A DNA stretch of 64,000 nt from an uncultured bacterium (GCA_937930175.1 CALGLP010000013.1:75764-139763); one strand, 5' to 3'; counted from the first letter of the stretch, positions 8,117-51,129 are shown. The notes: generated by a model not told the origin, from the letters alone. Numbers and translations are program-made.

Positions 8117-8144
8117 CACGCGTCATTGACAAACCATCAGAAAT
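8117..8144 (+). promoter_or_regulatory. sigma70 promoter for pgk (consensus -35 and -10)
   Basis: TTGACA at 8117-8122, 16-nt spacer, TATAAT at 8139-8144, about 85 nt upstream of the pgk ATG. Confidence 0.55.
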
Positions 8145-8227
8145 ATATATAATATTCCTAATTTTACTAAAGCATTTTCTTCACGTGAAATCATTCAGAG
8201 GCCCCTATTAACCCAAGGAAGGTTTTT

Positions 8228-9409
8228 ATGAGCAAGATGACCATTAAGGATTTAAGTGTTAAGGGTAAGAGAGTTATCATTCGCGCGGATTTTAATGTCC
8301 CGCTGGATAAGAGTCTTAAAATTACCGACGACAGGCGTATTCAAAGTTCGCTGCCAACGATTCGTTACGTCCTTGAACAAGGTGCCGCGAAAGTTATTTT
8401 GATGAGTCATTTGGGCCGTCCGGATGGGGCTGTCTTGGAGGAGGCGCGATTAACGCCTGTGGCCAAACGTCTCGCCGAGCTCTTAAACGAAAAAGTTTTA
8501 AAACTTGATGATTGTATAGGTGAGGATGTCAAGGCCAAAATCGCGGCGAGTCACGAGCGTGTTGTCTTACTGGAAAATCTCCGTTTTCATAAACAAGAAA
8601 AGAAAAATGACCCTGCCTTTGCTAAGGAACTCGCTTCCTTGGCGGATGTTTATGTCGATGATGCCTTTGGCTGTGCGCATCGTGCGGATGCCTCGGTTTC
8701 AGCGATTACCCAATATTTGCCTTCGGTGGCAGGTTTTTTGATTGAGAAAGAAATTCAATATTTGGGCCAGGCGGTTAATAATCCCAAGAAGCCGTTTGTG
8801 GTGATTTTAGGCGGCGCCAAGGTGTCGGATAAGATCGCTTTAGTGGAGAATCTTTTAAAAAAGGCGGATGCGATCTTGATTGGCGGAGGCATGGCATATA
8901 CTTTCCTTAAATCGTTAGGAAAAAATATTGGTAATTCAAAATTGGAAGCGGATAAAGTGGACATGGCTCGATCGCTGCTCGAGAAGGCCAAGCAAATGAA
9001 TGTCCAGATTGTTTTAAGCTCGGATTTTGTGATTACCCAGGGCTTTGATAAGCCGGAAACCAAAAAGATTTCAGCCGATATTCCCGATGGATGGGAAGGC
9101 TTGGATATTGGGCCTGAAACACGCAAAGCGTTTAAGAAAGTTTTGTCCACGGCAAAAACCATTGTTTGGAATGGGCCGGTGGGTGTTTTTGAAATTGATG
9201 CTTACGCGCAAGGGACCAAGGAAATCGCGGAATATTTAGCTACTTTAAAGGGTGCTATCACCATTGTGGGCGGCGGGGACTCGGCGGCTGCGGTTAGTAA
9301 ATTTGGTGTTGAGGATTCGATGTCACATATTTCCACAGGGGGGGGAGCATCGCTCGAATTTCTAGAAGGCAAAGAGCTTCCTGGTATTGCCGCGTTGAAT
9401 AATAAATAG
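8228..9409 (+). CDS. pgk: phosphoglycerate kinase
   Basis: 393 aa with clear PGK signatures along the full length. Confidence 0.95.
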   Translation: MSKMTIKDLSVKGKRVIIRADFNVPLDKSLKITDDRRIQSSLPTIRYVLEQGAAKVILMSHLGRPDGAVLEEARLTPVAKRLAELLNEKVLKLDDCIGEDVKAKIAASHERVVLLENLRFHKQEKKNDPAFAKELASLADVYVDDAFGCAHRADASVSAITQYLPSVAGFLIEKEIQYLGQAVNNPKKPFVVILGGAKVSDKIALVENLLKKADAILIGGGMAYTFLKSLGKNIGNSKLEADKVDMARSLLEKAKQMNVQIVLSSDFVITQGFDKPETKKISADIPDGWEGLDIGPETRKAFKKVLSTAKTIVWNGPVGVFEIDAYAQGTKEIAEYLATLKGAITIVGGGDSAAAVSKFGVEDSMSHISTGGGASLEFLEGKELPGIAALNNK

Positions 9410-9420
9410 AAAAAAGTGGA

Positions 9421-9448
9421 TAGTATTTAGTATATAGTATATAGAAGG
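9421..9448. repeat. left inverted repeat of GTATAT hexamers flanking the four-helix-bundle cassette
   Basis: tagtatttaGTATATaGTATATag. Its reverse-complement partner is at 9831-9859. Confidence 0.5.
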
Positions 9449-9455
9449 TTGATGG

Positions 9456-9818
9456 ATGGAAGGGAAGATTAAGAGTTTCAAAGATCTTAGAATTTGGCAA
9501 AAGGGTATTGAAGTCGTAGCGGATTCATATCAATTAACAAAGAATTTTCCTAAAGAAGAGCTTTACGGGTTAACGTCTCAGATTCGCAGATCGAGCGTGT
9601 CCATTCCTTCAAATATTGCTGAAGGGTTTAAAAGATACCACAACAAGGAATACAAGCAGTTTTTATTTATTGCTCTTGGTTCCTTGGCAGAACTGGAGAC
9701 GCAGTTGATTATCGCCGAGAAACTGAATTTTGTTAACCTGCAAGACCTTCAGAATGTTTCTAGCAAAATAGAATACTTGTCAAAGATGATTTCTTCGCTA
9801 ATGAAAAAATTGTCTTAA
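9456..9818 (+). CDS. four-helix-bundle protein (23S rRNA intervening-sequence protein family)
   Basis: KDLRIWQKGIEVVADSYQLTKNFPKEELYGLTSQIRRSSVSIPSNIAEGFKRYHNKEY...LGSLAELETQL matches the TIGR02436/PF05635-type signature by recall. Confidence 0.8.
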   Translation: MEGKIKSFKDLRIWQKGIEVVADSYQLTKNFPKEELYGLTSQIRRSSVSIPSNIAEGFKRYHNKEYKQFLFIALGSLAELETQLIIAEKLNFVNLQDLQNVSSKIEYLSKMISSLMKKLS

Positions 9819-9830
9819 GATCGGCATTTA

Positions 9831-9859
9831 CACTATATACGATATACCATATACTACAG
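9831..9859. repeat. right inverted repeat of ATATAC hexamers flanking the four-helix-bundle cassette
   Basis: ctATATACgATATACcATATACtac is the reverse complement of GTATAT units in the left repeat. Confidence 0.5.
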
Positions 9860-9880
9860 ACTAATTAAATGGAGCAAATC

Positions 9881-10642
9881 ATGAGAAAACCGATTATTGC
9901 AGGAAATTGGAAGTTAAATAAAAATATTAAAGAAGCTGTGGATCTTGTTAATGAGATTAAGGCTAAGTGCGCTGGCTTTGACAAGGCGGATATTGTGGTG
10001 TGTCCTGTGTTTACTGCGCTTTCTAAAGTCGCTGAGGTGTTAGAGGGGACAAAGATTGGCCTTGGAGCGCAGGATCTTTATTGGCAGGATGCGGGTGCGT
10101 TTACCGGCGAAGTTTCAGCGCCTTTACTTAAAGATGCAGGATGCCAGTATGTGATCATTGGGCATTCGGAGAGGCGACAATTCTTTGGCGAAACCAATGA
10201 AACTGTGAACAACAAAATCAAGGCGGCGCTTGCGCACGGATTGATTCCTATTGTTTGCGTAGGGGAGAATTTACAAGAGCGCGAGGCAGGCAAAACTTTT
10301 GATGTGATCAAGGACCACGTAGAAAATTCTCTCAAAGGATTTACCGCGCAGGACATGGGGAAAATGGTTGTGGCTTATGAGCCAGTTTGGGCGATTGGGA
10401 CAGGCAAAACAGCGACCCCAGCTCAGGCTCAGGAAGTCCATAAATTTATTCGTGGCCTTTTAGAAAAAAACTGTGGTAAGGGTGTGGCCGAAACCATTCG
10501 CATTCAATATGGTGGAAGCGTGAAGGCAGATAATGCCCAGGAACTTATTTCTCAGCCAGATATTGACGGCGCTTTAGTTGGCGGTGCAAGCTTGAAAGCC
10601 GATTCGTTTGCTGGTATTATTCAAGGATCTTTAGTAAAGTAA
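9881..10642 (+). CDS. tpiA: triosephosphate isomerase
   Basis: MRKPIIAGNWKLN...IGHSERR...AYEPVWAIGTG. GGAG sits 8 nt upstream of the ATG at 9881. An in-frame ATG 12 nt upstream is also possible. Confidence 0.9.
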   Translation: MRKPIIAGNWKLNKNIKEAVDLVNEIKAKCAGFDKADIVVCPVFTALSKVAEVLEGTKIGLGAQDLYWQDAGAFTGEVSAPLLKDAGCQYVIIGHSERRQFFGETNETVNNKIKAALAHGLIPIVCVGENLQEREAGKTFDVIKDHVENSLKGFTAQDMGKMVVAYEPVWAIGTGKTATPAQAQEVHKFIRGLLEKNCGKGVAETIRIQYGGSVKADNAQELISQPDIDGALVGGASLKADSFAGIIQGSLVK

Positions 10643-10794: not shown

Positions 10795-11166
10795 ATGTAT
10801 CAATTGGCATTAGTTGTTCATGTTTTGGCTTGTATTTTGCTTCTCATTGTTGTGTTGATGCAATCAGGTCGTGGCGGTGGCTTGACGCAGGCCTTTGCCG
10901 CAGCAGAAAGTGTCTTTGGACCAAAGACCAATTCGCTTCTGGTTCGCGCAACAACTATTTTGGCGCTTGTTTTTCTTGTGACTTCGTTAAGCCTTGCGTA
11001 TTTGTCCGCGCAAAAAGATAAGTCCTTGTTGATGCATGAGGCGCTTAAGGAGCAAACGATTGATCCTAACAAGCTTTTTGATGATGCTTCAAAGAATGTG
11101 CAAACCATTGAAATCAATGCCATGGAGGCGCCGGACACCAGTGAGCCACCTCCCGCTGTTCAGTAA
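10795..11166 (+). CDS. secG: preprotein translocase subunit SecG
   Basis: 123 aa. TM helices with LLLIVVLMQSGRGGGL in the SecG loop. Confidence 0.85.
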   Translation: MYQLALVVHVLACILLLIVVLMQSGRGGGLTQAFAAAESVFGPKTNSLLVRATTILALVFLVTSLSLAYLSAQKDKSLLMHEALKEQTIDPNKLFDDASKNVQTIEINAMEAPDTSEPPPAVQ

Positions 11167-12910
11167 ACAAGCAGTTCTTTTTCCGCAAGGTGCAAAAAAA
11201 CTACTAACGTGTTTAGTAGTTTTTTTGTTGTTTGTCTTCTCTAGGGCTGCGCTAGCCAAAGATATCGTGGGTGACAAGCACGGCGGCCAAGTTGTTTTTA
11301 CCTCTATTTCTGATCCTAAATCTTTTAATCCTATTGTTGCCCAGGAGACATCCTCGACGTCCATTATTGGTTATTTGTTTGAAGGCTTGACGCGGACCAA
11401 CGGCTTGACCCTTGAGGTTGAGCCCAATTTGGCCAAGCGTTGGGAGGTAGACACGGAGGGCTTGCGCTGGACATTTGATTTGCGTAATGATGTTTTATGG
11501 TCGGATGGTGAACCTTTTACCGCGGATGATGTTGTTTTTACGTTTAATGATTTGATCTACAATGACCAAATCCCGTCTTCTGAGCGCGATATTTTTACTA
11601 TTGATGGAAAAAAGTTTGAGGTGGTAAAGCTTGATACTTACAGAGTTCAATTTATCTTGCCCGTTAAATTTGCTCCTTTTTTGCGTTCCTTAGGCACGTC
11701 TATTTTGCCAAAGCATAAGCTTGCTGAGGCTCTTAAAAAAGGGCAGTTTAATTTTACTTGGGGCGTGGATGCGCCGGTGTCTGAGATTGTTGGGACAGGA
11801 CCTTATGTGCTTGAGCGTTATGCGCCCGGTGAACAGGTGGTGCTCAAAGCCAACGCGCGGTATTGGAAGAAATCTTTTGCGAATGAACAACTGCCTTTTA
11901 TTGCCAAGATTATTTTTGTGATTGTTCAGAATCAAGATGTCGCCTTACTTAAATTCTTAGAAGGGGAAATTGATGCCTTGACCCTTCGTGGTGCAGATTA
12001 TTCGCTCTTAAAGCCGATGGAGGCAAAAAAGAATTTCACGATTTATAATTTGGGTCCTGCTCCGGGGAGTAATTTTATTGTGTTCAATCAGAATGCGCGT
12101 CTTAATCCTCAGACCGGTAGGCCGTTTGTTAACCCTAAAAAGATTGCCTGGTTTTCTCATCCTCTTTTTCGCCAGGCCGTGGCGCATGCGATTGACAAGA
12201 AGAAAATTATTGATATTGTTATGAATGGATTTGGTTACCCTCAGAATTCTCCGGTTGATCCCAATAATAATATTTTTTATAACGCGTCGGTGCCGACTTA
12301 TGATTATAACTTGAATAAGGCCCAGGCGCTTCTTGCCAAGGCAGGCTTTCGTGACCGTGATGGCGATGGCCTCCTTGAGGATAGCCAGGGGAACAAGGTC
12401 GAGTTTAATCTTTATACCAATTCTAACGCCGTGGAGCGCATGCAAATCGCTGCAATTATCCGCCATGATTTAAAGAAGCTTGGCATGAATGTCAACTTTC
12501 TAGCCCTTGAGTTTAATAATCTCGTTTCCAAGTTGATGGCTAATTATGATTGGGACGCGATTATTTTAGGCTTGACCGGTGGGCTTGAGCCGCATTTTGG
12601 GAAAAATGTTTGGGTTTCCGATGGTCAGCTTCATTTTTGGAATCCAGGGCAGAGGACGCCAGCAACGTCGTGGGAAAAGCGTGTAGATGAAATTTTTACT
12701 CAAGGCGTCCAAATCCTAAATGACAAAGAGCGCAAACCTCTTTACGATGAATGGCAGGAGATTGTGGCTAAAGAATTACCGCTGATCTATACGGTTTTAG
12801 GATCGTATTTAACAGCAGTCCGTAATAAGTTCGAGAACCTTCAGCCCTCCAGTTACAGCGGTGTGTTTTATAACTTGGAAGAAATTTATTTAAAAGAAAC
12901 CTTTCGATAA
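11117..12910 (+). CDS. ABC transporter substrate-binding protein, family 5 (peptide/nickel Opp/Dpp-type)
   Basis: Long SBP_bac_5-like sequence with signal h-region LLTCLVVFLLFVFSRAALA. The only in-frame ATG upstream of the signal peptide is at 11117, about 50 nt inside secG, so the start is uncertain. Confidence 0.75.
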   Translation: MPWRRRTPVSHLPLFSKQAVLFPQGAKKLLTCLVVFLLFVFSRAALAKDIVGDKHGGQVVFTSISDPKSFNPIVAQETSSTSIIGYLFEGLTRTNGLTLEVEPNLAKRWEVDTEGLRWTFDLRNDVLWSDGEPFTADDVVFTFNDLIYNDQIPSSERDIFTIDGKKFEVVKLDTYRVQFILPVKFAPFLRSLGTSILPKHKLAEALKKGQFNFTWGVDAPVSEIVGTGPYVLERYAPGEQVVLKANARYWKKSFANEQLPFIAKIIFVIVQNQDVALLKFLEGEIDALTLRGADYSLLKPMEAKKNFTIYNLGPAPGSNFIVFNQNARLNPQTGRPFVNPKKIAWFSHPLFRQAVAHAIDKKKIIDIVMNGFGYPQNSPVDPNNNIFYNASVPTYDYNLNKAQALLAKAGFRDRDGDGLLEDSQGNKVEFNLYTNSNAVERMQIAAIIRHDLKKLGMNVNFLALEFNNLVSKLMANYDWDAIILGLTGGLEPHFGKNVWVSDGQLHFWNPGQRTPATSWEKRVDEIFTQGVQILNDKERKPLYDEWQEIVAKELPLIYTVLGSYLTAVRNKFENLQPSSYSGVFYNLEEIYLKETFR

Positions 12911-23530: not shown

Positions 23531-23870
23531 ATCAAATCTATTCTTCTTTCGGTAGCCAGGCTCCCCATAAGAATCTGTGGGGCCTTTGGTTCGCCACTAA
23601 AGCATTGGCGAAATCTTCGGCTTTGCGTCCCCGCCTTACAGCGGGTTTGCCTTTTCGAGAAGTGTAATAATCCTGTATTCACAAAGAACATTTCTTATAT
23701 CTTCCCAAAGGATAGCATGAGAATGATGAAAAACAAGGTCATTTAAGGGGGGGGCGAGAAACCGCTTTCTTTAGGCCAAGAACATAGGTGCGTAAGAGTC
23801 CTGGTTATCGTCGAGAAATTACTTTAAGTTAATAGAAAATCGTTGTGAAGGAGGGTGAAAAAAGATGAAA

Positions 23871-49277: not shown

Positions 49278-49352
49278 GGGCCCATAGCTCAGGCTGGTTA
49301 GAGCAGTTGACTCATAATCAATTGGTCCCAGGTTCAAGTCCTGGTGGGCCCA
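49278..49352 (+). tRNA. tRNA-Met (anticodon CAU; elongator-type G1-C72, could also be a lysidine tRNA-Ile2)
   Basis: Manually folded cloverleaf. Acceptor GGGCCCA/TGGGCCC. D-arm GCTC...GAGC. Anticodon loop CTCATAA. T-arm CCAGG-TTCAAGT-CCTGG. CCA is not encoded. Confidence 0.85.
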
Positions 49353-49362
49353 GTGAACGAGC

Positions 49363-49439
49363 GGGTGCATAGCTCAGCCGGTTAGAGCGCTGCCCTCACA
49401 TGGCAGAGGTCGAAGGTTCGAGTCCTTCTGTACCCACCA
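49363..49439 (+). tRNA. tRNA-Val (anticodon CAC), CCA encoded
   Basis: Acceptor GGGTGCA/TGTACCC with one G-U pair. Anticodon stem CTGCC/GGCAG. Loop CTCACAT. T-arm GAAGG-TTCGAGT-CCTTC. 3' ACCA. Confidence 0.85.
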
Positions 49440-50191: not shown

Positions 50192-50655
50192 GCAAGGCAT
50201 TAACTATTTTTATTGATGGGGCATGCCATGGGAATCCTGGTCCTGCAGGCATTGGCGTTGCGATTTTTGAGAAGGAAAAGCTTATCAAAGAAATTGCTTT
50301 ACCTTTAGGCGAGGCCACTAATAATATTGCAGAATACAGCGCTTTGATTTACGCTCTTTTGGAAGCCGCAGCGCTTAAAGTCGATTCCGTAACGATTTTT
50401 ACGGATAGTCAGCTTGCCTGTCGACAGGTCAATGGTCAGTATAAAATAAAGAATACACATTTAAAGTTTTTGCACGGCCAAGTGCTTTTATTGATGACGT
50501 TGTTTAAAAATGTTCATGTTGAGCACATTGCGCGGGAAAAGAATCAGCTAGCTGATGCCTTGGCTGGACGTTCTTTGAAAATACAAAAGAGTAGCCAAGA
50601 TGATCGCCCTGAGGAGTTTCTCTTCGGGGAGGAAAGTCCGAGCTCCAGAGGATAA
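50188..50655 (+). CDS. RNase H type-1 domain protein (RNase HI-like)
   Basis: IFIDGACHGNPGPAGIGV...NNIAEYSALIYAL...IFTDSQL...ADALA. Start inferred as the TTG at 50188 overlapping the upstream stop (TTGA). The ATG at 50146 is an alternative. The last 22 codons lie inside rnpB. Confidence 0.7.
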   Translation: MSKALTIFIDGACHGNPGPAGIGVAIFEKEKLIKEIALPLGEATNNIAEYSALIYALLEAAALKVDSVTIFTDSQLACRQVNGQYKIKNTHLKFLHGQVLLLMTLFKNVHVEHIAREKNQLADALAGRSLKIQKSSQDDRPEEFLFGEESPSSRG

Positions 50656-51002
50656 TGCATCCCGGTAATGCGGGACACCCTGCGTTTTGTTTTACGAAAC
50701 AAAACGCTAGGTAGGATTTCCGCCACAAATCGTGGCGGACCCGCCAAGTTGTTTGGCGGGAGAGCTACAGTGACGATGCCCTGCCTTCAGGCGGGGAGTG
50801 AAACGCCGCAATCTCTGCATGGAGTAAGGCCAAATAGGAGAAGACATAAAATCGTAAGATTTTATGGCGAAGCATCCCCTTCGCCACGATTCTCGGGTAG
50901 GCTGCAAGAGTCTGGAGAGCAATTTCCGGAGTGAGTCAAATGATCGTCTACCTCGCCAATAAATAATCGGGGGACACAGAACTCGGCTTATTGGCTACTC
51001 GC
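50588..51002 (+). ncRNA. rnpB: RNase P RNA, bacterial type A
   Basis: Conserved blocks GAGGAAAGTCCGAGCTCC (P4 5' strand), GGTAATGC, GGCCAAATAGGAG, CGGGTAGGCTGCAAGAG, ACACAGAACTCGGCTTATTGGCTAC. P1 pairs gagtagccaa (50589-98) with ttggctactc (50991-51000). Confidence 0.85.
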
Positions 51003-51129
51003 TATTATATGGATTTGGGGTAAAAGCGCATGCGCTTTTACCTCCTAGGGTGAACACCTTTCTTTCGCTTGAAATGGCGAACGAAGCAATGATTTAAAAA
51101 ATACAAACAGAGAAGACACGGAGGATGAT

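Follow-up and report, generated by a model that had tools for sequence, protein, structure and literature searches.

Bacterial 23S rRNA genes can be interrupted at the helix 45 tetraloop by an intervening sequence (IVS) of about 430-460 nt that carries an open reading frame (ORF) of the PF05635 family between inverted arms, as in Leptospira, Coxiella burnetii, Brucella and Azospirillum. Excision by RNase III has been demonstrated experimentally for the Coxiella, Leptospira and Salmonella IVSs, and in that of Coxiella, where GACAGAT repeats lie 5′ of the ORF, the enzyme cleaves where the first repeat begins (PMC4990558). Here we describe an element that shares with the rRNA IVSs its protein family, size, inverted arms, co-orientation with the host gene, apparent dependence on host transcription and sporadic distribution, but whose host is the protein-coding pgk-tpiA operon. 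It lies in a 64,000-nt stretch of DNA from an uncultured bacterium (GCA_937930175.1 CALGLP010000013.1:75764-139763; hereafter the window, with positions counted from its first letter) and consists of a gene for a 120-aa four-helix-bundle protein bracketed by inverted arrays of tandem heptamers.

Tandem heptamer repeats have been known since 1990 and have been used for the fingerprinting of cyanobacteria, but to our knowledge they have no accepted function or origin. The REP-associated tyrosine transposases (RAYTs) belong to the HUH tyrosine transposases, whose chemistry is known, and the repetitive extragenic palindromic (REP) sequences are imperfect palindromes of roughly 20-35 nt; Nunvar in 2010 and Bertels and Rainey in 2011 are said to have described RAYT genes together with REP/REPIN elements. 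Hundreds of heptamer arrays have been reported in Xanthomonas (GGGAATC) and Nostoc (GGGGA(T/C)T), with 70 convergent inverted pairs of the GGGAATC repeat in X. campestris (PMC4692102), and hundreds in Beggiatoa for the TAACTGA arrays of the Beggiatoaceae (PMC4679880). In those two papers the repeats are viewed as forming G-quadruplexes or as serving regulation or fingerprinting, and the protein family is mentioned in neither (0 matches for S23, 23S or helix bundle). Finally, the pentameric barrel of Avd carries positive charge, binds a defined RNA stem-loop and has been likened to 'S23 ribosomal proteins' (bioRxiv 10.1101/2023.10.23.563531), and PF05635 genes wedged between cas genes or scattered in rRNA inserts of the candidate phyla radiation have been noted and left unexplained (PMC3936711; bioRxiv 10.1101/2024.02.27.582315).

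A first reading of the window, made from the sequence alone, had proposed that pgk and tpiA are normally adjacent and that a cassette of about 440 bp, encoding a four-helix-bundle protein of the 23S rRNA IVS family, was inserted between them. Both the family and the insertion stand, and in its broad outline, an inserted cassette with IVS-like ends, that reading is largely right. By its profile scores the cassette protein is a firm member of PF05635/TIGR02436 (PF05635 23S_rRNA_IVP, 136.6 bits against a cutoff of 33.8, E 4e-40; TIGR02436 'four helix bundle protein', 131.9 bits against 24, E 1e-38), and it also exceeds the cutoff of the NF008911 subfamily (161.2 bits against 137). The comparison of pgk-tpiA spacers that the sequence-only reading had suggested yielded both filled and empty sites. 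In the outgroups, at about 60% identity, pgk and tpiA overlap or are at most 34 nt apart, and all these sites are empty. A scan for Pgk relatives also gave a close relative (L094-L096; Pgk 82%, TpiA 85% and SecG 79% identical to the window) that is at least as related to the window as the filled relatives are, and in which a pgk-tpiA gap of 19 nt holds no PF05635 gene. There the empty junction reads TAG followed by AATGGAGATCTTATCATG, against TAG, the insert and AATGGAGCAAATCATG in the window; TAG and AATGGAGATCTTATCATGAGAAAACC of the empty site correspond to TAG, 458 nt and AATGGAGCAAATCATGAGAAAACC of the filled one. The insert therefore occupies 9410-9867; it follows directly on the pgk stop codon, precedes the tpiA Shine-Dalgarno sequence, and is 458 bp long rather than about 440. 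Since the AATGGAG preceding tpiA is also found at the empty site, the tpiA Shine-Dalgarno is host sequence. No target-site duplication is visible when filled and empty junctions are compared, and the empty site of L095 is clean, with no arrays left.

The exact cassette protein was found on contigs of several metagenomes, always in the order pgk, cassette gene, tpiA, secG. Six metagenome copies of the element are identical in sequence, arms included, so that the strain-level variation in heptamer copy number reported for Coxiella is not seen among these six. Homologues at the same site share 80-89% identity with the cassette protein (L007, L010, L012, L219 and L221), and the next homologue, at 74%, lies in another operon, between the gene of a GGDEF response regulator and genes of CheY-like proteins. 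Six lineages of the clade, the window included, are filled at this site and two lack the cassette (L094-L096 and L108). In a neighbour-joining tree of concatenated Pgk, TpiA and SecG, the empty L095 groups with the window and L108 is sister to the filled L007 with a 100% bootstrap value, both being nested inside a clade, also supported at 100%, that holds the filled L010 and L012. The identities of the cassette proteins roughly follow those of their hosts across lineages. The most economical account has the cassette gained once at the base of the clade and lost twice afterwards, the alternative being repeated site-specific gain, and a single insertion in the ancestor of this Omnitrophota clade, with vertical inheritance and at least two losses, best explains the distribution. 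In L108, whose housekeeping proteins are 90% identical to those of L007, the site is occupied or has been replaced by something else, a 207-nt pgk-tpiA spacer (L108:3680-3890) that has no ORF, contains GTGAAT three times and folds with moderate stability (z = -2.2). We considered whether this spacer could be a decayed cassette and rejected it, as it has no similarity to the cassette; it is an unrelated structured spacer.

Between the filled lineages the synonymous sites of the cassette gene are saturated (proportion of synonymous differences, pS, 0.63-0.88), whereas the nonsynonymous divergence (dN) is 0.09-0.13 and the ratio to synonymous divergence (dN/dS) stays below 0.08; the protein is clearly under strong purifying selection. 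Despite this saturated divergence, both spacers of every filled lineage are still inverted arrays of [ACG]GTAT[AGT]T units, and the arrays are therefore constrained or continually homogenised. The arrays being kept wherever the gene is kept, the element is not simply an old resident gene found without repeats in its relatives, the outcome that would have spoken against the sequence-only reading. In regards to the suggestion of that reading that the cassette is a miniature mobile or selfish element, we found no sign of recent mobility: it occupies the same site in six lineages at saturated divergence, with the low dN/dS given above, without target-site duplication and without another copy in the window. 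'Selfish' is therefore unproven, and a module that is useful, or at least tolerated, would account just as well for such lasting retention under purifying selection. The locus belongs to a very widespread module and is an old member of it, handed down vertically and under selection, rather than an active selfish element.

The inverted repeats that had been noted at the cassette ends are real, but their unit is a heptamer and not a hexamer, as both Tandem Repeats Finder (period 7 at 9420-9444 and 9835-9854) and the self-match of the arms indicate. A repeat search of the window aligned 9421-9444 with 9833-9856, 24 nt of which 21 are complementary, and the reverse complement of the downstream arm reads GTCTGTA GTATATG GTATATC GTATATA GTGTAAA. 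The 17-nt arm consensus TAGTATATAGTATATAG, allowing up to 3 mismatches, has 5 matches in the 64 kb, all inside the two arms, where 0.03 would be expected. No comparable heptamer array was detected by Tandem Repeats Finder elsewhere in the window, nor did tblastn, blastn and pattern searches of the window return the further copies of the protein or repeat that the sequence-only reading had led us to look for. Folding the repeat ends as RNA, also suggested there, gave a predicted arm-arm duplex of -21.5 kcal/mol (-10.1 +/- 2.6 for shuffled sequences), and in the minimum-free-energy fold of 9405-9875 the arm stem closes the cassette (z = -2.9). An RNA stem closing the insert is thus feasible in these models.

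The same architecture is found far beyond this locus. A scan of species-representative genomes, in which the window's own species was not among the matches listed, returned at least 80 homologous loci at 54-72% protein identity from about 10 phyla or groups (Planctomycetota, Atribacterota, Omnitrophota, Desulfobacterota, Nitrospirota, Clostridia, Endomicrobia and others). Nearly all of the listed loci have tandem 7-nt units 5′ of the ORF and reverse-complement units 3′ of it. For 79 of them, the best self-match over 21 nt reaches a mean of 15.8 in the upstream and 15.4 in the downstream arm at period 7, the other periods between 4 and 10 giving 7.8-9.2 of 21, and arm complementarity is 14.9 between cognate arms and 8.1 between non-cognate ones. 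The units differ from locus to locus (GTATATA, GTATCGA, GTGAATA, GTCGTTA, GTCGCTA, GTGAAGC, GTATTGC and others) within the logo G-T-[AGc]-N-[ATc]-[Tg]-[AC], which the upstream arm and the reverse complement of the downstream arm have in common. Protein clusters match heptamer families rather than host phyla, two families may occur in one genome, and protein distance correlates with heptamer distance (Mantel r 0.39, p <= 0.0005). The gene shares its strand with the downstream neighbour at 72 of 72 listed loci and with the upstream one at 63 of 71; median gaps to the neighbours are 56 and 60 nt, so that the arrays fill the spacers.

The layout also extends to plasmids, viral contigs and a true rRNA IVS. 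In Azospirillum lipoferum AZO_p2 (L181:1440-1940), a 23S rRNA helix-45 IVS encoding a PF05635 protein reads CAGAGGA CGGATGA CAGAGGA CGGAGGA, then the ORF, then TCCGTCC TCTGTCT TCTGTCA TCCGTCT; its heptamers belong to the same family (GACAGAT) as those of the Coxiella IVS. The PLSDB table, which lists no RNA genes, has no feature in this region. The IVS-like ends proposed by the sequence-only reading are borne out by this shared order of array, ORF and inverse array and by the position of the Coxiella RNase III cut at the first heptamer (PMC4990558). Orthologues of Xcc0516 in Xanthomonas campestris and Stenotrophomonas (L182:1923-2373 and L185:1984-2424) lie between accB and accC, with the arms GGGAATC GGGAGTG GAGAATC GGGAATC and their inverse; in these two the order of variants is mirrored, although the seventh position of each unit is unpaired. 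The arrays of the Xanthomonas PF05635 gene are thus exactly the GGGAATC repeat, and those of Nostoc and Calothrix (AGTAGGG and GGGTGTA) resemble the short tandemly repeated repetitive (STRR) sequences. A Nostoc edaphicum plasmid has eight copies of AGTAGGG before the ORF and five of CCCTACT after it, a Calothrix plasmid GGGTGTA and TACACCC, and a Riemerella plasmid AAGGTTT and AAACCTT. On viral contigs, most of 32 PF05635 loci have the same layout.

Some of these loci show peculiarities of their own. At L089:3836-3999 the upstream arm consists of about 23 tandem CGTGAAT/CGTGAAG heptamers (164 nt) and reaches the PF05635 start codon. Two or three PF05635 genes lie within 8 kb in L044, L074, L077, L064, L022, L028, L065 and L090; some of these are partial and resemble decayed cassettes beside intact ones, and in L064 HepT-like and MazF-like toxin genes are interspersed among them. 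On Nostoc edaphicum pNe_5 (L176:1400-1900) the gene is an exception to co-orientation, lying antisense between two ribonucleotide reductase genes. In a subset of viral contigs (L198, L205, L206, L200, L194, L208 and L210) a TAnnTTTG-like motif, for instance TTAGTATCTTTGCGG, is conserved between the upstream array and the ORF, about 20-50 nt 5′ of the latter; we take it to resemble the Bacteroidota promoter -7 element, and judging by this motif these cassettes may have their own promoter. Cyanobacterial loci have ACTTCAAACTT repeats at this position instead.

Heptamer arrays also exist away from the gene. In the 538 kb of the 80 listed loci there are 42 further period-7 arrays away from any PF05635 gene, against 0, 1, 3 and 3 arrays at periods 5, 6, 8 and 9. 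Solo arrays of the GT type tend to start within -4 to +6 nt of the preceding stop codon, and those of the AC type to stop 16-31 nt short of the following start codon. Several GT...AC pairs enclose little or no ORF (L026 3062-3181, L024 940-1212 and L038 2903-2983). In the chemotaxis operon at L038:2900-4400 (cheW, cheY, cheD, the PF05635 gene and a cheY-like gene), arrays of the GTCGCTA family occupy several consecutive spacers, including a hairpin of a GT-array and an AC-array without an ORF. The arrays are a wider phenomenon in these genomes, of which the window holds just one pair.

The comparison with the described systems can be made more precise. Like an IVS, the cassette lies inside the region of its host transcript, on the same strand, with no promoter or terminator of its own found and with complementary termini able to close a stem-loop. 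It is not located in an rRNA gene but in the pgk-tpiA spacer, and since rRNA location is the defining trait, the element is an IVS-type cassette in a predicted mRNA and not an IVS. The state of the ORF differs as well, that of the Coxiella IVS being reported as decaying and probably untranslated in contrast to the strong purifying selection seen here. With REP/RAYT systems the cassette shares a single gene flanked by inverted copies of a cognate short repeat, a repeat family that co-varies with protein clade, the dispersal of the repeats in intergenic spacers singly or as inverted pairs, and mostly vertical inheritance with occasional loss. It differs in having a 120-aa helical bundle without known catalytic motif and a tandem heptamer array; RAYT-REP is an analogy for how the cassette may work and not a matter of membership. 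With the described heptamer repeats (STRR, GGGAATC, GGGGA(T/C)T and TAACTGA) the arrays have in common that they are tandem, 7-nt, mostly intergenic, often inside operons and frequently in convergent pairs.

Structural comparison agrees with the family assignment. Its AlphaFold model (pLDDT 90.9; helices 12-28, 33-59, 66-89 and 95-119) matches in Foldseek the crystallised family members 2GSC (Xcc0516) with TM-scores of 0.89-0.94 and 2RLD (BT_0352) with about 0.8. The PDB entries of both have five chains each, and Xcc0516 is described as a toroidal homopentamer (PMC4990558); the cassette protein is small and, by analogy, probably pentamer-forming. The four-helix-bundle fold is shared with Avd (4DWL and 8UB7; TM-scores 0.72-0.83), at an identity of 13%. 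No transposase family was matched in the profile searches.

The insertion, its conserved architecture and the recurrence of the layout in a true 23S rRNA IVS and in many phyla are observed; in regards to how the element works, we think it probable, if not strongly so, that it is a promoter-less IVS-type PF05635 cassette bracketed by cognate heptamer arrays, inserted once and processed by RNase III, with the heptamers as the register of the pentamer. The cassette would be transcribed by read-through from the pgk promoter, and base pairing between its GUAUAUA-type and UAUAUAC-type arrays would give an imperfect duplex, about 24-28 bp long, with the ORF looped out of the pgk-tpiA message. Cleavage of this duplex by RNase III, as known from the Coxiella IVS, would free the cassette RNA and part the pgk segment from that of tpiA, so that an essential operon could accommodate the insert in the way that rRNA does. 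We infer read-through, pairing and cutting from the architecture shared with rRNA IVSs. Pairing alone hardly accounts for the strict 7-nt period, the invariant GT and the clade-specific units, which point to recognition by a periodic oligomeric factor; the encoded pentamer is the obvious candidate by analogy, given that its relative Avd binds a defined RNA element. The period, the GT and the matching of heptamers to protein clades suggest that the toroidal pentamer could use the heptamer as its binding register, the two making up a self-contained protein-plus-repeat module like a RAYT gene between its REPs. A stem of tandem repeats would also tolerate slippage, as any register pairs, which would account for arm co-variation at the level of the heptamer family without a position-specific signal.

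Several observations weigh against parts of this account. Among the listed loci, arm mismatches are G:T in 40 cases and A:C in 42, without the G:T excess expected of an RNA helix, and the order of heptamer variants is not mirrored between arms beyond permutation (Wilcoxon p 0.14), a test of low power with arms of 3-4 units. Complementarity could be a by-product of both arms sharing one heptamer family, and as far as these alignments can tell, selection on pairing gains no support from either test. Some arrays, moreover, lack a partner arm or the gene, and pairing thus cannot be their sole role. The correlation between clade and heptamer could reflect simple co-inheritance. The authors of the Coxiella study concluded that the IVS protein is probably not made (PMC4990558), and some family members are antisense to their neighbours (Nostoc edaphicum) or have an apparent promoter of their own.

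The same data can be read as a DNA element of the transposon or miniature inverted-repeat transposable element (MITE) type, in which the arrays are terminal inverted repeats of reiterated recombinase sites, used by the bundle protein or an outside factor, and the RNA stem is incidental. The terminal inverted repeats, the presence/absence polymorphism at one site and the recurrence of the module in many unrelated contexts and phyla would be expected of such an element. Strand-symmetric mismatches and an unmirrored heptamer order are likewise what recognition of duplex DNA would leave; the ORF-less GT...AC pairs of L026, L024 and L038 look like non-autonomous derivatives, and the loss in L095 is clean, without residual arrays. 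However, the cassette has neither a visible target-site duplication nor identical or near-identical copies in the 64-kb window. The 120-aa bundle has no recognisable transposase or nuclease motif, its nearest characterised relative, Avd, being an RNA-binding cofactor; the cassette has stayed fixed at one site through saturating divergence; and a 7-bp period does not fit the helical repeat of DNA. We consider this reading unlikely.

A domesticated trans-acting regulator, whose protein would bind intercistronic arrays as RNA or DNA throughout the genome and tune processing, stability or translation, its own arrays being autoregulatory, and which would no longer be a mobile element, seems to us improbable too. 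It would explain the dN/dS below 0.08 and the retention over deep divergence, the arrays of one family filling several spacers of the L038 che operon beside the gene, the placement of solo arrays at stop codons (GT type) and before start codons (AC type), and the hundreds of arrays in the Xanthomonas, Nostoc and Beggiatoa genomes (PMC4692102, PMC4679880); Avd also provides a precedent for binding a defined RNA element. Yet the 64-kb window contains no other heptamer array and hence no visible regulon, the gene was lost twice within the clade without replacement, and the same module sits inside rRNA, where regulating neighbours makes little sense.

That the gene is a remnant Avd accessory gene of a diversity-generating retroelement is very improbable, and effectively refuted by thresholds and gene context. 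The matches to bAvd PF22296 (34.4 bits, cutoff 40) and NF033474 DivGenRetAVD (30.2 bits, cutoff 80) and the structural similarity given above hint at such an origin, but both scores are under the curated cutoffs, identity to Avd is 13%, the cassette sequence is not repeated elsewhere in the window, and within about 10 kb there is no reverse transcriptase and no template or variable repeat, the neighbours being the housekeeping pgk, tpiA and secG and ABC-transporter genes. A last possibility, that an ordinary small gene of long residence merely happens to be surrounded by AT-rich low-complexity sequence, might be suggested by the short AT-rich repeats and the 44% G+C of the genome, but it is refuted by the motif excess (5 matches against 0.03 expected) and by the conservation of the inverted heptamer layout, with different and often GC-rich units, around homologues in about 10 phyla.

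The main value of this locus is the generalisation that it exposes across the PF05635 family. PF05635/TIGR02436 is among the commonest uncharacterised small bacterial protein families (homology searches each returned more than 5,000 homologues), usually annotated just as 'four helix bundle protein', and its gene is almost always bracketed by inverted heptamer arrays that track the clade, in rRNA and operon spacers as well as on plasmids and viral contigs. Two open problems, the protein family and the heptamer repeats, are thereby joined into one. We tentatively propose, as a possibility short of an even chance, that bacterial tandem heptamer repeats have their sequence-specific partners in the PF05635 pentamers, with each protein clade recognising, and perhaps spreading or maintaining, its own 7-nt unit. 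If true, a single protein-plus-repeat system, comparable in its logic to RAYT-REP, would embrace the repeats of the STRR, GGGAATC and TAACTGA types, the rRNA IVSs that bear ORFs and the thousands of bundle genes wedged into operons. The association of gene and arrays also accounts for the presence of PF05635 genes between cas, acc, che or glycolysis genes, and this matters for function prediction by guilt of association. In a full-text search, outside of which most subscription journals lie, only the Coxiella paper (PMC4990558) links PF05635 to heptamers, as a local curiosity; the general rule relating protein and heptamer, and the link to STRR-like and GGGAATC repeats, appear to be unreported in the searched literature.

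The features of the locus are collected in Table 1. The cassette ORF has the strand of both pgk and tpiA, from which it is separated by spacers of 46 nt and 62 nt filled by the arrays. When the gene block was scanned, a promoter-like site was found only before pgk and a terminator-like site only after secG; judging from its match to the consensus, the former is the likely promoter of a transcript covering pgk, the cassette gene, tpiA and secG. The ORF listing places the tpiA start at 9869, upstream of the start set by homologues.

Table 1. Features of the pgk-tpiA locus and its inserted cassette (window positions).
Feature	Position	Strand	Basis
Sigma-70-type promoter-like site, TTGACA-16-TATAAT, 12/12	8126-8153	+	Consensus match; 75 nt 5′ of pgk
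pgk (phosphoglycerate kinase), TAG stop 9407-9409	8228-9409	+	PF00162, E 1.5e-158
Inserted cassette, 458 bp	9410-9867	+	Bounds from empty pgk-tpiA junction of L094-L096
Upstream arm, four sense heptamers GTGGATA GTATTTA GTATATA GTATATA	9416-9443	+	Sequence, Tandem Repeats Finder, repeat search
Shine-Dalgarno-like GAAGG, 7 nt before cassette ORF ATG	9444-9448	+	Read from sequence
Gene of 120-aa four-helix-bundle protein (PF05635 / TIGR02436 / NF008911)	9456-9818	+	Profile matches, AlphaFold model
Downstream arm, five inverse heptamers TTTACAC TATATAC GATATAC CATATAC TACAGAC	9827-9861	+	Sequence, Tandem Repeats Finder, repeat search
tpiA Shine-Dalgarno GGAG within AATGGAG	9871-9874	+	AATGGAG present at empty site too
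tpiA (triosephosphate isomerase)	9881-10642	+	PF00121, E 2e-102; start set by homologues
secG, last gene of conserved pgk-tpiA-secG block	10795-11166	+	
First terminator-like hairpin 3′ of block, 16-pair stem then T run	11192-11228	+	

A TATA-rich stretch of the downstream arm (9827-9855) also resembles a promoter (10/12 match) and was discounted, as other heptamer families are not promoter-like. Rfam at gathering thresholds gave no RNA family at 9400-9900, and the window holds no rRNA gene. Elsewhere in the window, and unrelated to the cassette, Rfam identified a c-di-GMP-I riboswitch (23548-23661, minus strand), two adjacent tRNA genes (49278-49436, plus strand) and a bacterial RNase P RNA of class A (50588-51005, plus strand). 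Finally, a 36-nt tandem repeat of 1.9 copies with 81% matches is found at 616-688, where it overlaps an array of 12-nt periodicity.

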